Source: a virus. From it: a stretch of DNA of 64,000 bases. The notes beneath the pieces are model-generated. The model saw only the letters and a program-made list of their open reading frames with translations, did no database searches and was not told the origin of the DNA. Of the stretch, positions 2,959 to 62,300 are shown in pieces. A program made the translations under genes and the position numbers. The DNA is taken from positions 16,663 through 80,662 of IMG/VR virus record IMGVR_UViG_3300032214_001462. One strand, given 5' to 3'. Positions within the stretch are counted from its first letter, which is position 1. Every line of letters begins with the position of its first letter.

Positions 2959-3028
2959 CAGGAGGTGAGTCCTGCAGTAAACCCACCACCGATACGGATC
3001 CGTATCAATGGAAGGGTTAAGAGCAGGA
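2959..3028 (-). repeat. intergenic long hairpin, family II copy 1
   Basis: TCCTGCTCTTAA...TTTACTGCAGGA-CTCACC-TCCTG. Confidence 0.7.
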
Positions 3029-3033
3029 GTCTG

Positions 3034-3417
3034 TCAGAAAGGAATTTCTTCCAGTGTAGGTTCTACCTGGAGTGTTGGTTCAACCGTTGCCTTGGGCTTA
3101 GGTGCTGAACCAATGGTTGCCCTTACGTTTGTAAGAGCGATCTCTGGGTAGCGAAGAGGAAGTAGTTGTTCATCCTTGGTGTAGTGCGTACGAATACTTG
3201 CGATCCGTACGTCCCACTGGCTAAGGATGAGTTGCTGTCCGACAACGAATGTACCGTTGCGGTAAGCAGTTAACAATCCGTTGGAATTGTTAAATTTAAT
3301 CCGACAAGACTTGTCGTATGCATCATTGACTGCAACTGTGATTGCAAGGAATTCACGTCCTTCATAGGTCGCGACTTCCATGTAAGTAACGTTGCCAATG
3401 ATGGTGTTAGAGAACAT
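3034..3417 (-). CDS. single-stranded DNA-binding protein-like
   Basis: N-terminal TIIGNV OB-fold start and C-terminal EEIPF tail. Confidence 0.6.
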   Translation of the reverse strand: MFSNTIIGNVTYMEVATYEGREFLAITVAVNDAYDKSCRIKFNNSNGLLTAYRNGTFVVGQQLILSQWDVRIASIRTHYTKDEQLLPLRYPEIALTNVRATIGSAPKPKATVEPTLQVEPTLEEIPF

Positions 3418-3443
3418 GGTTGGTATGAAGTTGAGTTGATGTA

Positions 3444-3515
3444 CAGGATGTTGAGTCCTGCAGTAAACCTACCGTCGTAGTACATACGTACTGACGGCAG
3501 GGCTTAGAGCAGGGA
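3444..3515 (-). repeat. intergenic long hairpin, family II copy 2
   Basis: 25 nt (3443-3467) identical to 4043-4067. Confidence 0.7.
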
Positions 3516-3719
3516 TCAGTTTAGATACTTTGCATTAATGCAGTAGTAGCTATCACCAAGGAAGCTCTTGGTGTAGATCAGGTTATGTCCTGGTCTGTTG
3601 TTGCATGTCTTCTTGTAGTGTTGGTTGAGTAGCTTCTGGCCTCCAGCAGAAAGGAATAAGCCACAACCAACGCCGAGAACAAGAGCAACACAGGAATCGA
3701 TAAAGTGATTGTTTGTCAT
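3516..3719 (-). CDS. small membrane protein
   Basis: N-terminal hydrophobic helix; A/C leader. Confidence 0.6.
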   Translation of the reverse strand: MTNNHFIDSCVALVLGVGCGLFLSAGGQKLLNQHYKKTCNNRPGHNLIYTKSFLGDSYYCINAKYLN

Positions 3720-3745
3720 GGTGTTATGTAGTGTGTTAAGAACGC

Positions 3746-4018
3746 TCACATCATTTGCATGATGCGTTCTTGTTCCATGTCGATGCTGTACTCGTAGTAC
3801 TCATGCATCTCCATGAGCATGTCTTTCATTGAGCTTGGTAATCCACCGCCGAGAGTACGGACATCACGCTCCAACCATTCCTGGTATGTAGCATTGGTAT
3901 CGGCGTCGAATGTATTCCATAGCTTCTCGAAGTGAAGCATGGTTGATTCACCGCCGTACCATGTGATGCGATACTGATGTTCGCCGGATGGTTTGTAGAC
4001 CAGTGCAGGTGTTGTCAC
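3746..4018 (-). CDS. hypothetical early protein
   Basis: GTG start at 4018 after CTCAACTCAACA; the ORF-track extension runs through a hairpin. Confidence 0.6.
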   Translation of the reverse strand: MTTPALVYKPSGEHQYRITWYGGESTMLHFEKLWNTFDADTNATYQEWLERDVRTLGGGLPSSMKDMLMEMHEYYEYSIDMEQERIMQMM

Positions 4019-4043
4019 TGTTGAGTTGAGGTAGTGTTGATGA

Positions 4044-4091
4044 CAGGATGTTGAGTCCTGCAGTAAAGGCCCGTAGGCCCTTAGTGCAGAA
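4044..4091 (-). repeat. intergenic hairpin, family II copy 3
   Basis: TTCTGCACTAAGGGCC-TACG-GGCCTTTACTGCAGGA-CTCAACA-TCCTG. Confidence 0.7.
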
Positions 4092-4092
4092 G

Positions 4093-4266
4093 TCAAAGTT
4101 CAGTCTTGGGAGTAATGACAAATGCCATATCGTTAGGCATCAGCAGGGCTGCTGCACGTATACGGTATTCATTTAGCTTGGTGCTGACATACTCCTTAGA
4201 TTTGTCACTCTCCAGCATTGCTGCTGTTGAGATAAGTGCATTGGCTAGTCCTTTGCGGATACCCAT
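4093..4266 (-). CDS. hypothetical early protein
   Basis: start MGIRKG after an A/C leader. Confidence 0.6.
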   Translation of the reverse strand: MGIRKGLANALISTAAMLESDKSKEYVSTKLNEYRIRAAALLMPNDMAFVITPKTEL

Positions 4267-16434: not shown

Positions 16435-16731
16435 GTGGGACCTGAATACGTTGCCATTGGCTTAACAGCTATTATTTCATCTATTACCGGCGGCGGTTGG
16501 GCCGCCTCAAAAATACTTAGCCGCTACAACGATCAAGTACAACAAGCCTTCAGCTATATTGGATCACAGAAACGAAGGATTGATGTTTTGGAAGAAGATC
16601 TTAAGCGCCTCCCAATGGACTATGTACTTAAGGTTGATTTCTTAAGAGAAATTCAAGACATGCACAATAATTTTCGTGAGATCAACAATAAACTTGATAA
16701 ACTAATCGAAAAGATGTTATCAAGCAAATGA
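16435..16731 (+). CDS. membrane-anchored coiled-coil protein
   Basis: N-terminal TM segment then YVLKVDF...INNKLDKL coil. Confidence 0.65.
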   Translation: MGPEYVAIGLTAIISSITGGGWAASKILSRYNDQVQQAFSYIGSQKRRIDVLEEDLKRLPMDYVLKVDFLREIQDMHNNFREINNKLDKLIEKMLSSK

Positions 16732-17603: not shown

Positions 17604-19883
17604 ATGTCTGACGCAAAGGCCCGCTTAAAGGAAATAATCAATTCCTATCTCGACAAAGATAGTGACATTGTTGTTGACACAGGCGTTGTTGCGTCACATA
17701 TTGCACAGATGAAATTATTTGGCATCCGTCAGGGTGTTGAATTTTTCCCTTCTCAAGACAACTTCGGTGCGCAGCGCAAGGATTTTCTTGATCGCGTATT
17801 GAAATACAACAAGATGGATACGCGCCTGGATTCTATCTGGGAGTATTTTCTTTGTGATGGTAAAGGGCTTTTCTATATTCGTCCCACTAAGCAAAGCTAT
17901 CGTCTTTACTATTTTCGTGAACACGAATACAGAAGCTATTACAACGTAGATGGTGAGCTCGACGAAGTTGTGATCATCTATAGCTATAAAGTGCGTCGTG
18001 GCAACGGGTTTGGTGATCAAATAAATGTCGCTAATTTAAGCGGCATGAAAAATAGTTACGGCCCAGGTGCTAAACGCTATATCCGTTTATCTATCAAGAA
18101 TAGTCAAATCGAAGAGACTCATTCTGATAGTGACATGTCCTTCGACATGCCCAGTTATTCCTATGGAACTAACACCAAAAAATTCAAGAACACTTTAGGC
18201 TTCATTCCTTGTGTTGAGATCGTCAATAATCCACAAGGCTTTTCAACAGAAGGCAGTGGTGAATTTGATGCGATGGCAAATCATATTTGCACGCACGATG
18301 ATTTGATGCGTACGATTCGTAAAAATATTAATTTCTTTGGTAACCCCACACTCCTTTCTTCCAGGCCTAAAACAGACTTGATGGAAGCAGGTGGGGATAT
18401 GTCCATCCAGCGTCCTTCCATCGCGGCCAACTCAGGTTTCACAAGCGCTTCTCCCTTGAGCCGTTCCATGTTCAAGGCTGATCCCGTCAGTCGCGGCATG
18501 GATGGCCAGCTGCGAGTACCAAGGGTTATTGCAAACCTGGAGCCTAATGACCGAGTTGGTTACATTGTTCCCGATGCAATCACAGGCGACCAAAACTCTT
18601 TTGCTCGTCAGTATCGCGAAGAGATTCGCACTGCTCTTGGTGGTGTAGATGAACTTTCGATTTCAGCTGGTGTTACTGCGACTGAATATAAGTCTTTGTT
18701 TGGACGAGTATCTGCAACTTCAAAGAAAAAAGCAAATGCTATCTATACACATGGCATTTCTCGTTGCTTGGAATTGATCATTTACCAAGAAGAACAGCTA
18801 TTTAAATCAACACTTGCAGCTGCTGCTGGCATCGAAAAGCCAGTAGATTTGGGACCTAACGCCCCTCCGGAAGAAGAGCAGGCCTATAAGCAAGCACTTG
18901 ATCAATACAACGAAAAGATCAAGAGCATCATGATGGCCTGTATCGAAACACAGATGATTCCACCTGGAGTAATGGGACTTATTCCAGATGGAGACATCAC
19001 TGTGCTTTGGCGCTGGATGGGCCCTGTTTATGAAGATTCCACTCAAGATATCTTGAATAACTCAATTGTGGTTAGGAATCTTCAAGAATTAGGTGTTGAT
19101 AGCATTGAAGCACTGAAGTACCTCTTTCCGTCCAAAACGGATGAGGAAAGAGCCGAGATGTTATCTGGGTTCCCGTTCAGGATGGTTAACGAATTGCAGG
19201 GTGCTTATTCTGCATTCGCTAAACTAGTGGGGGGAATGATGCAGACTCCCCACCCGCAAGCACCGGATCTTCCGATGGCTGCGGATCCAAGATTGGATTT
19301 AACGCCATATCTGTATCGAACTTTAGAAGCTCTACAAAAGGAGATGAGTTATGCAGGACGCTACCGTCCAATCGATCCCACAGACGAGCCAAGTTCCGGC
19401 AGCGGTGGCTCCGAGCAGCTACGTGGCACCGGCACCCAGCAATTACCAGGCGGCTCCGGGTCCAGTGGCGTATCAAGTGGGTACCAACTACCCTCAAGCA
19501 GTTCCACAGGCGGTCCCCAATTACCAATCCGCCCCTACTCAGTACGCCCCCCAATCCCCATCGGAGGCGACGAGCAGCCCATGGGAATCGGCGTTCAACA
19601 AGGTGGTGAATCTGCTGAGCGCACCAGTTCAATCCCCGTTCCAGGGTCAGTCCTCAGCGACGACGACTCAGTACGCCCCGGCGAACTACGGCCAGCAAGT
19701 AAACCCAGCTACGCAACAATCGGCTCAGCAGACCTGGTCTCCCAACCAGATCTCGTCGCCCAGCTCTTCCCAAACCTTCTCGGTTCAATCCTTGGGGGAC
19801 GTGGCGGATCTGCTCCAGTGGAGTCCGGAGACGCGCCACGTGGTAAGCGCGTACGGAGTAGAGGCTCCCGCAATCCTAAATAA
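17604..19883 (+). CDS. portal protein with a low-complexity C-terminal extension
   Basis: size and position between terL and capsid; LGFIPCVEI...GSGEF and SAG...SLF patterns typical of portals. Confidence 0.75.
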   Translation: MSDAKARLKEIINSYLDKDSDIVVDTGVVASHIAQMKLFGIRQGVEFFPSQDNFGAQRKDFLDRVLKYNKMDTRLDSIWEYFLCDGKGLFYIRPTKQSYRLYYFREHEYRSYYNVDGELDEVVIIYSYKVRRGNGFGDQINVANLSGMKNSYGPGAKRYIRLSIKNSQIEETHSDSDMSFDMPSYSYGTNTKKFKNTLGFIPCVEIVNNPQGFSTEGSGEFDAMANHICTHDDLMRTIRKNINFFGNPTLLSSRPKTDLMEAGGDMSIQRPSIAANSGFTSASPLSRSMFKADPVSRGMDGQLRVPRVIANLEPNDRVGYIVPDAITGDQNSFARQYREEIRTALGGVDELSISAGVTATEYKSLFGRVSATSKKKANAIYTHGISRCLELIIYQEEQLFKSTLAAAAGIEKPVDLGPNAPPEEEQAYKQALDQYNEKIKSIMMACIETQMIPPGVMGLIPDGDITVLWRWMGPVYEDSTQDILNNSIVVRNLQELGVDSIEALKYLFPSKTDEERAEMLSGFPFRMVNELQGAYSAFAKLVGGMMQTPHPQAPDLPMAADPRLDLTPYLYRTLEALQKEMSYAGRYRPIDPTDEPSSGSGGSEQLRGTGTQQLPGGSGSSGVSSGYQLPSSSSTGGPQLPIRPYSVRPPIPIGGDEQPMGIGVQQGGESAERTSSIPVPGSVLSDDDSVRPGELRPASKPSYATIGSADLVSQPDLVAQLFPNLLGSILGGRGGSAPVESGDAPRGKRVRSRGSRNPK

Positions 19884-20311: not shown

Positions 20312-20854
20312 ATGCGTGGCGCTCTTAAATACGGCGTACCCATCGCTGCCGGCTTAGGCACTGGTGCGTACGCCCTTTCTCAAGGTGAAGATATTGGCTC
20401 TGCTGCTCTTGCGGCAGGTGCCGGTGCATTAGGCGGTGCAGGTGGTTTGCTTGCAGGTCGTTTGGCTGGCAAGTATTCCCCGCAGCTTCTTGAAGTGATT
20501 CAAGAAAAGGCAGTAGTTCCCGTTGGCAATATTGTCGGTGATATTGGCCGCAATATTCCACAGGGATCTACAAAGCGTGCTGGCGTCGTTGGTAAAGCAG
20601 CTGATATTCTTGCCGCCGCAGAAGGTGCTGCAATGAATCCGGCCGCACAACGTACAGTCGGCAAAGCAGCTGCTGGCCTAGGTGTTCCACTTGGAGCATT
20701 AACTGCCGGACTTGGTGGAGTTGCTCTTGGAGCTATTCCAGGCTCATTGGGCGTACCTGGCTTTGTTCAGGATCCTTCCATTGATCCCGAGTCTTACGGC
20801 TCCAGCAACTCAATGGGTGCTCGCTATAAAGAGCCCACTATGCAGTACATGTGA
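20312..20854 (+). CDS. Gly/Ala-rich hydrophobic protein
   Basis: 180-aa ORF. Confidence 0.65.
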   Translation: MRGALKYGVPIAAGLGTGAYALSQGEDIGSAALAAGAGALGGAGGLLAGRLAGKYSPQLLEVIQEKAVVPVGNIVGDIGRNIPQGSTKRAGVVGKAADILAAAEGAAMNPAAQRTVGKAAAGLGVPLGALTAGLGGVALGAIPGSLGVPGFVQDPSIDPESYGSSNSMGARYKEPTMQYM

Positions 20855-20953
20855 ACATATAAGTTCACTACCTGCTAAAATTTGTGTTAGATAAGACACG
20901 TGTGTCTTTATCTTTCACCCGATAAAAACACTGACACTGGAGGATAAACCAAG

Positions 20954-22938
20954 GTGTTTATTGATAGCTAGTTCAGATCCTGGTAGGTATGACCCTTCAA
21001 GATTTGGTAAATAGCTCCGTGATTGCAATCAAATTTTTCGGCAATTTTTCTATAAGAAAGACCAGCCTCTTTTAAAGATTTGATTTGATTCACGTCACCC
21101 GAAGAAAACTTTCTCAAAGACTTCTTCGGTTTTCCTTTACTGGCAAAGCCATTGTTTTTATAACAACCACTTTCCCAGGCTCTTGTTAAATTCTCTTGTT
21201 TGGTAACAATCTCAAGATTGTCAAGATAATTATTTCTCTTGTCATTATCTTTGTGATCAACTTGCAAGGAAAAGTTACTGGTTCCATGAGAACGCAGATC
21301 TAATCCTAAAAATGCAACTGCCATCAAGACATGAAGATGAAAACGCTTTCTCTTCCCGTCAACAAGAACTGAGATGCGGTCGTAAACACTGGTTGAACTG
21401 ATTGGAATCTCTAAAAAATATTCTTGATTATCGGGATCAAGTTGTTTTTCAAAAGCTTTTCCTTCTTCAGTTAAGTAAAGATTACCAAATCCTGGAACAA
21501 GTTTTGGATTCATGTTGTTCATAAACAAGTTTCCAAATAGTAACATGCCTCAACTGAACGCTCAACGTTGTCACCTCACCGAGCAATCGATGAGTGCAAA
21601 CCGGATGAATTCAGGGAAGCCCTAACGTAAAGACGAGGGTAATCCTGAGCCAAGCCAATCAAGCGTGATTGGAAGGTGCAGAGACTAGGCGGCTGGTGAC
21701 GCTTCACCTGTAATACGCCATTAGCGTCCGGCATCCCACAGGGATGAAGAGATAGTCCACCCCTCTAAGAAACTAGAGACCAGGAGAACGATTTTCCAAA
21801 AATCTTGGGTGCGGAACTTTATCGCCCCCACCCTGCTTACATCGCAGAAATGGCAGTCGAGCCTGTGGTCGTTCACGACTTCACTCGTCAGCCCGGTCAA
21901 ACTGTTCAGTTAGATCGCTATAAGTTCTGGGGTACCCCTGGTACTAAGGACAGCCGTGAGCGTATTGCCGATCAAACCATCGGTACCGCTAACAGCCGCA
22001 ACATCACGAAGGAGAAAGTCCTTGTGGTGCTGAAGGAGTACACTGGCCCTGCAGACCCGGGTGATCCGACTCAGCCTTCTACCTTCAAGATTGCACGTGA
22101 AACTCTGATTACCGCCCAGCGTCTTCTGCTGGACACCGGTAACCTGAATATGTTCCACCAGTCGATCGGTAGCCTGACGCTGCTTGACGACTATCGCCGT
22201 TGGCGTGATCGCGTGTTCATTGATGAACTCGCCAAAGCAGAAGCCAATGGTGCTGCCTCTACTACCCAAGGCGGTTACTACTTCCCTGGTGCTAAGACCA
22301 AGAACGCTTCTGGTCAGATCACCTATACCTCTGATGAGTACACCGCAGAAACTCAGCAGTTCCAAGTGCGCACCGATCTTCTGACTGTGGTCAAGGATCT
22401 CCGTAAGCGCAACACTCCTACCTTCGCTGATGGTCTGTATCGCTGTATTTGCGATCCAACCTTCATGATGCACCTGCGTCGTGATCCTGACTTCCGCGAA
22501 ATCGCACGTTACTCCGGTAACCCTGGCCAAGGCATGTACATGGGCAACCCCATGATGCCTAACAACGCCAGCTTCTACATGGGTCCCCAGGCTGGTCAAG
22601 GTTACTTCCTGGCTGGCGAACCTGTAATGCCTACTGGCGTGCAGTTCGAAGGTGTTAAGTTCTTCGAGTCGACCAACTTCCCGACCAAGAACGTCAGCGC
22701 TTCGTTCAACAACGGTTCTACCTACACCTCCCAGGAAGTTGCACAAGGCTACTTCTTTGGTCCTCAGTCCATCGGTGTTGGCATCGGCGGCCCTAATGCC
22801 CAGGTGCTCATCAACAACAACGATGACTTCAGCCGTTTCATCATCCTGATCTGGCAACTGTATGCAGGCTTCGAGATCCTGAACAAGGACTTCGTGACCA
22901 CCGCATTCAGCTTCGTTCAAGACGACGGCAACATCTGA
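20954..22938 (+). CDS. major capsid protein, spliced join(20954..20965,21787..22938), 387 aa
   Basis: GGAGG plus GTG TTT ATT GAT joins in frame to AAC GAT TTT CCA AAA ATC TTG GGT; strong codon bias; HK97-type features (PGQTVQL, FEGVKFFESTN). Confidence 0.85.
20966..21786 (+). mobile_element. group I intron (821 nt)
   Basis: exon 1 ends in T and intron ends in G; core motifs GAATTCAGGGAA, AATCCTGAGC, GCAGAGACTA, AAGAGATAGTCC; P3 CCGGATG/CGTCCGG; IGS CGTTGTCA at 21566-21573. Confidence 0.93.
20968..21546 (-). CDS. intron-encoded HNH homing endonuclease (I-HmuI-like, C-terminal HTH), antisense to the intron
   Basis: HVLMAVAFL...VDHKDNDKRNNYLDNLEIVTKQEN; SYRKIAEKF HTH; the real start may be a downstream Met. 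Confidence 0.88.
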   Translation of the reverse strand: MLLFGNLFMNNMNPKLVPGFGNLYLTEEGKAFEKQLDPDNQEYFLEIPISSTSVYDRISVLVDGKRKRFHLHVLMAVAFLGLDLRSHGTSNFSLQVDHKDNDKRNNYLDNLEIVTKQENLTRAWESGCYKNNGFASKGKPKKSLRKFSSGDVNQIKSLKEAGLSYRKIAEKFDCNHGAIYQILKGHTYQDLN

Positions 22939-62228: not shown

Positions 62229-62300
62229 CGGGAATTAGCGCAGCGGTAGCGCGTCTGCTTTGGGAGCAGAAAGTCGCAGGTTCGATCCCTGCATTCCCGA
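62229..62300 (+). tRNA. tRNA-Pro(UGG), CCA not encoded
   Basis: acceptor CGGGAAT/ATTCCCG, anticodon arm TCTGC-TTTGGGA-GCAGA, T-arm GCAGG-TTCGATC-CCTGC. Confidence 0.95.

Follow-up and report, generated by a model that had tools for sequence, protein, structure and literature searches.

A group I intron with an antisense HNH endonuclease gene in its P1 loop at the major capsid gene of a freshwater cyanophage

The major capsid gene of an S-EIV1-like freshwater cyanophage very probably carries a functional, mobile group I intron whose P1 loop (L1) contains an HNH homing-endonuclease gene of the I-HmuI type, encoded on the opposite strand. The element lies in a 64,000-nt stretch of DNA (hereafter the window, to which all coordinates refer) that corresponds to positions 16,663 to 80,662 of the IMG/VR virus record IMGVR_UViG_3300032214_001462, a complete genome of 80,662 bp with terminal repeats. 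A preliminary description, made from the letters of the window, had proposed a group I intron after codon 4 of the capsid gene, and its coordinates all hold on re-reading the sequence, including the ribosome-binding GGAGG, the GTG exon, the palindrome CTAG, the complementary segments GTTCAG and CTGAAC, the guide, the terminal G21786 and exon 2.

The intron occupies 821 nt of the plus strand, from its first base at 20966 to its terminal G at 21786, the alleles of related phages place it after codon 4, and its core has a covariance-model match. Rfam RF00028 matches 21541-21779 on the plus strand with 95.5 bits (gathering score 50 bits; E 2e-23) over model positions 1-253, that is, the full model, and this is the sole match in the complete genome. 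In S-EIV1, the nearest isolate, whose capsid protein is 87% identical, the capsid gene is uninterrupted, its product reads MFIDTDFPKILGAEL and the DNA at the site is ctggaggataaacacaaGTG TTC ATT GAT ACC GAC TTT CCT AAG ATT TTG GGC. Because the S-EIV1 allele, like the other intron-less loci considered below, is uninterrupted at this site, the intron can be set at exactly 20966-21786. A one-base ambiguity of the boundary, with an A on either side, disappears once the group I rule is applied, which calls for U ahead of the 5' splice site and G as the last intron base. This terminal residue (omega G, 21786, plus strand) lies in the motif CCAGGAG·AAC (a dot marks splice junctions throughout), which is invariant in all alleles. 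Exon 1 (20954-20965, plus strand) consists of GTG TTT ATT GAT (M-F-I-D), the last 4 nt of which form the exon half of P1. The intron-less loci, S-EIV1 included, read GTG TT(C/T) (A/C)T(T/C) GA(T/C) followed directly by A(A/C)(C/T) GA(T/C) TTT CC. Exon 2 (21787-22938, plus strand; 383 codons and a stop) opens with AAC GAT TTT CCA AAA ATC TTG right after G21786, and the spliced product MFID·NDFPKILGAEL that had been predicted matches the reading frame of the intron-less alleles.

The distribution of the intron among relatives is patchy. Our comparison set from IMG/VR comprised 80 loci selected for a capsid protein of 90-94% identity, or 81 loci with S-EIV1. There is no intron in 58 of the 80 (59 of the 81 with S-EIV1), and the N-terminus of these proteins reads VF(I/L)D(N/T)DFPKILGAELY. 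Fourteen further loci hold a complete 821-826-nt intron with the HNH gene, two (L003 and L064) have a 276-nt intron without any gene, and the remaining six lie at contig ends and are not fully assignable, although one of them (L040) retains part of the HNH gene. A wider scan of IMG/VR with a 24-nt core motif returned at least 119 matches, and those listed are all at the capsid site. Among the 97 complete introns in the matches listed, 85 carry the antisense HNH gene (70 of clade A and 15 of clade B) and 12 are gene-less, with lengths of 271-277 nt; a sense-strand frame of at least 100 aa is found in none of these 97. Across the IMG/VR relatives we thus meet an HNH form of 821-827 nt, a gene-less form of 271-277 nt and the empty site, all at one position. 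The clade B introns (loci L185, L195, L196, L103 and others among the 15 complete ones) interrupt a more distant capsid gene (NDFPKLLGAEL...) at the corresponding codon. They too contain an antisense HNH gene, and they differ from clade A in P2, P9 and the P1 internal loop, while the guide and the helper stem described below are identical.

On a capsid tree built from the exon-2 DNA of 78 alleles, with the first 150 nt omitted, intron presence changes at least 13 times, and 11 of these changes are forced by well-supported branches. Near-identical alleles, such as L047 and L051 or L025 and L028, differ in whether they have it. Since intron presence changes so often on the tree, the element is mobile, and the alleles display the pattern expected if the intron were still being gained and lost among relatives.

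The ribozyme core (21575-21778, plus strand, as are all its elements) was delimited by the Rfam alignment and pair counts. The alignment places P2 at 21575-94, P3 at 21601-07 with 21725-31, P4 at 21611-16 with 21643-48, P5 at 21619-23 with 21636-40, P6/P6a at 21649-77, P7 at 21681-87 with 21753-58, P8 at 21733-45 and P9 at 21763-78. We mapped P2 to P10 on an alignment of 16 cores (14 distinct), with 500 shuffles and slid 3' partners as controls. Standard pairs make up 98.3% of the alignment cells, and six pairs have changed on both sides, two of them in P2, three in P6/P6a and one in P8. The observed pairing values were equalled by none of the 500 shuffles, and sliding the 3' partners by 1-3 columns left 28-45% of cells paired, with one double change at most. 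P2 of clade B is fully compensated as well (CUUAGCGA with UCGUUAAG). To judge from these alignments, the fold of the ribozyme core is kept by selection. The preliminary description had likened the core to cyanobacterial tRNA-Leu introns, the subgroup IC3 type, in which no helix is expected between P7 and P3'; this likeness finds no support, and the nearest DNA matches of the core are other phage introns.

Between P7 and P3', where subgroup IA introns have P7.1/P7.2, lies a P7.1-like hairpin (21688-21719, plus strand). It comes in two versions of unrelated sequence that fold alike, with a 4-bp outer stem, an inner stem of 5-7 bp and, on the 3' side, a UAAUA bulge. The window and L025 share one version, and all others have the second (L003:1998-2031). 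This split is independent of the presence of the HNH gene, which suggests that modules have been exchanged by recombination between introns.

The endonuclease gene lies on the minus strand of L1 (20968-21513) and encodes 181 aa followed by a stop. Its product matches PF13392 (HNH_3) with 35.5 bits (7e-9; cut-off 24.8 bits), PHROG 59 (HNH endonuclease) at 6e-26, and I-HmuI (PDB 1U3E) with an E value of 2.6e-5 over residues 43-176 versus 38-160, a region that takes in the HNH motif, where VDHKDNDKRNNYLDNL stands opposite VDHKDGNKDNNLSTNL, and the putative C-terminal helix-turn-helix region. HTH_38 scores 22.4 bits there, under its cut-off of 27, and the region aligns with the C-terminal part of I-HmuI. 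The start at ATG 21513 is conserved and gives the 181-aa product. An ATG at 21546, which would begin a 192-codon open frame, was rejected as the start, its place being taken by CAC, TAT or similar in relatives. The reading frame is intact and of equal length in all 15 alleles first examined, with a median pairwise dN/dS of 0.10 and dS values that reach 0.75. All 85 further copies among the IMG/VR matches listed have an unbroken frame as well; the substitution pattern indicates that the gene is under purifying selection. The genome has one copy, and relatives in isolated phages reach at most 33% identity. The palindrome CTAG (20968-71) does serve both strands in the way first described: it supplies the plus-strand stop at 20969-71, in frame with the GTG, which ends the MFIDS peptide, and the minus-strand stop of the HNH gene at 20968-70.

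Both ends of the pairing between splice site and guide could be located. The 5' strand of P1 (UGAU·AGC, 20962-20968, plus strand) is invariant in all complete alleles and most simply forms a continuous 7-bp helix with GUUGUCA (21567-73), with a U20965-G21570 wobble at the splice site; as P1 is read as 7 continuous base pairs, its intron half overlaps the P10 guide. The internal guide CGTTGTCA (21566-21573, plus strand), read from the sequence, offers GUCA to the UGAU of exon 1 (P1) and CGUU to the AACG of exon 2 (P10). We could confirm these pairs, and with them the earlier proposal that the guide is complementary to the ligated junction TGAT·AACG. The helper stem P1a, which had been proposed to clamp L1, has both arms in place, GTTCAG at 20971-20976 being complementary to CTGAAC at 21554-21559 (both plus strand). 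The opposite strand of the 5' arm encodes the last two HNH codons (L-N), and the last seven codons of the HNH gene (H-T-Y-Q-D-L-N) are the reverse complement of the conserved 5' segment of the intron, P1a included. Helper stem and guide are invariant in the 97 complete introns listed, in two clades and with or without the HNH gene, and the P10 pairs are invariant in the 14 distinct cores.

The exon bases that take part in this pairing are conserved where the intron is present. Among 23 intron-bearing alleles compared at exon 2, all keep AACG at its opening, and TGAT precedes the splice site in all 17 that are complete at the 5' end. The same eight exon positions differ in 12 of the 59 intron-less alleles (ACC, AAT, GAC, ATCGAT), a difference with an uncorrected hypergeometric chance of ~0.014. 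Intron-less alleles with such changes at the insertion site include L044, L054, L058, L060, L038, L066, L072 and L080. The changes are synonymous (GAT·AAT, GAC·AAC) or conservative (GAT·ACC, N to T), they occur in no intron-bearing allele, and they may mark sites that resist the endonuclease or are unfit for P1 or P10.

The gene-less introns provide a view of P1 without its long loop. They read ...TTGAT·AGCTGGTTCAGGTCCTGGTAAACAATTTAATTGTTTAATCTGAACGCTCAACGTTGTCACC..., and the 5' splice site, helper stem and guide are all kept, with a short hairpin replacing ~545 nt of the HNH gene in the window. This hairpin stands at exactly the spot where the gene had been placed within the P1 loop, and the placement is upheld. 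RNAfold of the gene-less segment returns, as the structure of minimum energy, the 7-bp P1, P1a as GGUUCAG with CUGAAC(C), and a tip hairpin. The arms of the tip hairpin covary, with AAACAAA and TTTGTTT, AAGCAAT and ATTGCTT, and AGGCAA and TTGCCT as matched versions. Most gene-less alleles have AGCTGG, whereas HNH-bearing alleles have AGCTAG, so that the shared stop is lost on both strands. A few gene-less alleles retain AGCTAG, and one of them (L105) retains GGTAGG...GCCT as well; judging by these remnants, they look like derivatives that arose after loss of the HNH gene. We also considered a local P1 hairpin of UGAAC (21555-59) with UUGUCA, which would set an alternative 5' splice site, and rejected it: it needs bulges, has no exon or start ahead of it, and conflicts with the intron-less alleles.

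The product of the interrupted gene is, by homology and structure prediction, a major capsid protein of the HK97 fold. Its residues 25-367 match PHROG 1357 (major head protein) at 1e-16. The AlphaFold model (pLDDT 78.6, pTM 0.79) finds the capsid of cyanophage P-SCSP1u as its best Foldseek match (E 6.7e-14, probability 1.00), and a probability of 1.00 is also reached with the capsids of cyanophages Pan3 and A4 and of phages GP4 and N4. Nearly all of the top matches listed are phage capsids, with one encapsulin and one gene-transfer-agent capsid lower down. Pfam gave no match for the capsid, portal or neighbouring proteins. Uninterrupted homologues in databases typically have 387 aa, equal to 4 + 383. 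Database entries of 377 aa are intron-bearing genes called from the TTG in exon 2, and 362-aa versions start from the ATG of codon 22. The correct 387-aa capsid needs the intron model, because gene callers shorten the product to 377 or 362 aa or overlook the gene altogether, as happened in the S-EIV1 record. In that record (KJ410740.1) the capsid gene is not annotated as such (locus L001:3011-4237); the locus bears a minus-strand 'hypothetical protein' of 253 aa (3011-3772) and, on the plus strand, a fragment of 156 aa (3767-4237), and the real 383-aa frame runs from 3086 to 4237 of locus L001.

We propose the following course of events. The late pre-mRNA would start upstream of the GGAGG and GTG and contain the 12-nt exon 1, the intron and exon 2. 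Its 5' splice site, UGAU·A, would pair with the guide GUUGUCA 600 nt downstream, with the 6-bp helper stem at the base of L1 bringing the two together. The core, P2 to P9, could then perform the two guanosine-dependent steps, and P10 (CGUU with AACG) would align exon 2, to give MFID·NDFPKILGAEL and a predicted 387-aa capsid protein. The HNH enzyme, in turn, most likely nicks or cuts the intron-less capsid alleles of co-infecting relatives, and repair would copy the intron in (homing). In a 24-kb block of structural genes on the plus strand, the HNH gene is the sole real gene that runs the other way. It is antisense to the whole late operon and therefore needs a promoter of its own, which probably lies at the 3' edge of L1. 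A tentative candidate on the minus strand (21537-21565) combines TTGAGC (21565-21560), a spacer of 17 nt and TACTAT (21542-21537). The latter hexamer stands 23 nt before the ATG, and its pattern TAnnnT is kept in most alleles, with variable middle bases.

That capsid synthesis depends on splicing, as the preliminary description had proposed, is supported by strong, if indirect, evidence from the alleles. After exon 1 the intron continues with AGC TAG, and an unspliced message would yield MFIDS followed by the stop. All 23 intron-bearing alleles have an in-frame stop seven codons ahead of the 3' splice site, and the first conserved ATG in exon 2 is codon 22. Upstream of it, variation touches 12 of the 18 codons that open exon 2, always synonymously, which argues that these codons are translated. 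Without a conserved start ahead of them, ribosomes would enter only from the 4-codon exon, by way of splicing. An opposing reading treats the intron as an inactive relic: no splicing would occur, the capsid would be started in exon 2 at TTG 21805 or at the ATG of codon 22, and the 4-codon exon would be a leftover. Gene callers did use these starts, for products of 377 aa and 362 aa, TTG is the codon at 21805 in the window, and one RNA library has the unspliced form only. However, the TTG, which had been named as the competing start, is present in just 10 of the 23 intron-bearing alleles and is replaced by TTA, CTT or CTG in the other 13, no ribosome-binding site lies ahead of it, and the synonymous change in codons 1-18 extends upstream of the first conserved ATG. 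A relic would also leave the compensatory pairs of the core and the exon bases for P1 and P10, kept by all intron-bearing alleles, without a reason to persist. We regard it as highly improbable that the intron is such a relic.

RNA data are available as contigs from four metatranscriptomes, which have no strand information and cover 0.07-0.13 of the sampled words, so that uncovered parts mean nothing. Contigs from two studies contain the exact joint of 20965 to 21787, beside contigs that retain the intron. In a third study GTTCATTGAT stands directly ahead of 21787, and the gene-less form of the intron is found there too. One RNA library (X1) yielded a low-depth contig (2.9) that joins G21786 back to C21559. 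The latter base directly follows CUGAA, a sequence similar to the UGAU of the exon. The contig could represent a truncated intron circle of 228 nt or, equally, a chimera or a tandem arrangement, and intervening letters are possible.

Several points weigh against a spliced intron whose endonuclease is expressed in the way we propose. In the fourth RNA library (X4) the sole contig across the site retains the intron. The joined contigs of the other libraries are compatible with splicing without proving it, since intron-less strains, whose DNA or RNA could give the same joint, are common and the contigs are strandless. The sequences of P1, P1a and the guide never vary, and their pairing is argued from conservation, folding and the gene-less alleles, not from covariation. 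Local-fold z-scores are weak (-1.6 and -0.4), which makes the RNAfold result a consistency check and not a proof. Folding could be slowed or impeded by a P1 loop that spans 600 nt and lies antisense to an mRNA. As for the HNH promoter, clade B has TAAAAT at the candidate hexamer, clade B and one type of clade A have another distance to TTGAG, and a consensus scan for sigma-70 sites reported no HNH promoter.

The preliminary description had added that antisense endonuclease transcription could gate the timing of capsid synthesis. In such a timing gate, transcription of the HNH gene, or pairing of its RNA with L1, the 5' splice site and the ribosome-binding site, would delay the capsid until HNH transcription stops. 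An HNH transcript would reach exon 1 and the leader of the capsid gene, it would come from the only real minus-strand gene of the structural block, and a possible -10 element is at hand at the 3' edge of L1. Antisense interference has been discussed for nuclear antisense endonuclease genes (PMC9548176). Against this stand the 59 of 81 loci that lack the intron and the 12 of 97 complete introns listed that lack the HNH gene; as most relatives have no intron and some introns no HNH gene, the phage can do without such a gate. The frequent gain and loss suits a selfish element better than a regulator, and the promoter candidate is weak. On balance we find a regulatory role of this kind unlikely. 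In a more specific version, the antisense strand of the P1 internal loop and helper stem would supply the promoter and 5' end of the HNH gene, whose 3' end would overlap the 5' splice site and capsid start region, and this would render early HNH transcription and late capsid splicing mutually exclusive. We give this little credence; if it were true, intron-bearing phages would own a built-in early/late switch on coat-protein synthesis. It is also conceivable that the intron is split and spliced in trans, with the pre-mRNA broken in L1, for example by head-on HNH transcription, and its halves joined by P1 and the helper stem. A break in L1 would spare the core, and trans-spliced group I introns exist in organelles (PMC3873408). 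Yet the halves would be held by 7 + 6 base pairs only, RNA contigs cross the 5' part of L1 and also its 3' edge into the core, and the gene-less alleles are plainly cis-spliced forms, all of which makes splicing in trans exceedingly improbable.

The layout of this intron is already known from mycobacteriophage LittleE (Cluster J), which also has a group I-type intron in its major capsid gene, with an endonuclease gene (gene 14) directed leftward on the bottom strand (Pope et al. 2013, PMC3706429). Splicing of the LittleE intron was proven by RT-PCR and N-terminal sequencing, a related intron without a gene occurs in a tail gene, and the same authors cite a capsid intron in lactococcal phage Tuc2009 (PMC3706429). 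LittleE differs from the phage studied here in the position of the intron, which is at nucleotide 496 of the gene (PMC11855218) and not after codon 4, in its host, an actinobacterium, and in its enzyme, which is termed both HNH and LAGLIDADG-like (PMC3706429). The novelty implied by the preliminary description was thus overstated, and the element does not reveal a new kind. A literature search on phage introns with an endonuclease gene in the opposite orientation did not find this cyanophage intron described.

I-HmuI, the HNH nicking endonuclease from the DNA-polymerase intron of phage SPO1 (PDB 1U3E), is a homologous protein that is likewise encoded inside a phage group I intron, but its host gene is a polymerase gene and not a capsid gene. 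Its gene is on the sense strand. Other cyanophages have group I introns in protein genes as well, namely the psbA introns of S-PM2 and S-CBWM1 and the DNA-polymerase intron of Pf-WMP3, although the host genes differ; the S-CBWM1 psbA intron is 69% identical to the window core over ~180 nt. The Pf-WMP3 enzyme, I-PfoP3I, is encoded on the sense strand, and the psbA-linked endonuclease is free-standing. I-PfoP3I is an HNH enzyme that nicks DNA and is encoded inside an intron of subgroup IA2 (PMC3428280). The nuclear rDNA introns Dsq.L2066 and Dir.S956-2 share with our intron an endonuclease gene that runs opposite to the intron strand (PMC9548176). An internal promoter drives their antisense endonuclease gene, and the problem that this may interfere with the host transcript has been discussed (PMC9548176). 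Unlike the phage element, they are eukaryotic and involve His-Cys box enzymes, pol II promoters, polyadenylation, spliceosomal introns and an rRNA host gene (PMC9548176).

Within this known kind, the capsid intron shows particular variations: a 12-nt exon 1, a gene in L1 such that P1 closes over 600 nt, a gene end that overlaps P1 elements, and three coexisting allele states. The empty site, the intron with an apparently active endonuclease gene and the intron after what appears to be gene loss coexist at one site in widespread, uncultured freshwater cyanophages. Since three stages of the life cycle of such an element are present together, these phages form a good natural system for the study of homing dynamics in the environment. 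They also offer a compact test case for the folding of a ribozyme whose P1 must form across a 600-nt loop that runs antisense to another gene.

Upstream of the capsid gene, a consensus scan found a promoter-like site on the plus strand (20852-20881; TGAACA, 18 nt, TAAAAT with TG), which may drive capsid transcription and of which the part CTGCTAAAAT is kept in S-EIV1 and the IMG/VR relatives. The Shine-Dalgarno sequence GGAGG (20939-20943, plus strand), 10 nt before the GTG start, is kept in all relatives, with or without the intron. Between the two lies a leader hairpin (20890-20912) composed of GATAAGACA, a variable loop and TGTCT. Its arms are kept, and the loop is different in nearly every relative (CGTGTG, ATCT, TTT, AAAAC, TAGTAA). 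It may serve to stabilise the transcript or in regulation, or it may terminate the upstream gene. Further upstream, a 759-aa portal-like frame (17604-19883; PHROG 20475, with a weak portal match) shares 533 nt (19351-19883) with the following one, of 318 aa, in another reading frame. Elsewhere in the window, a tRNA gene lies on the plus strand at 62229-62300 (Rfam RF00005, 70.7 bits).

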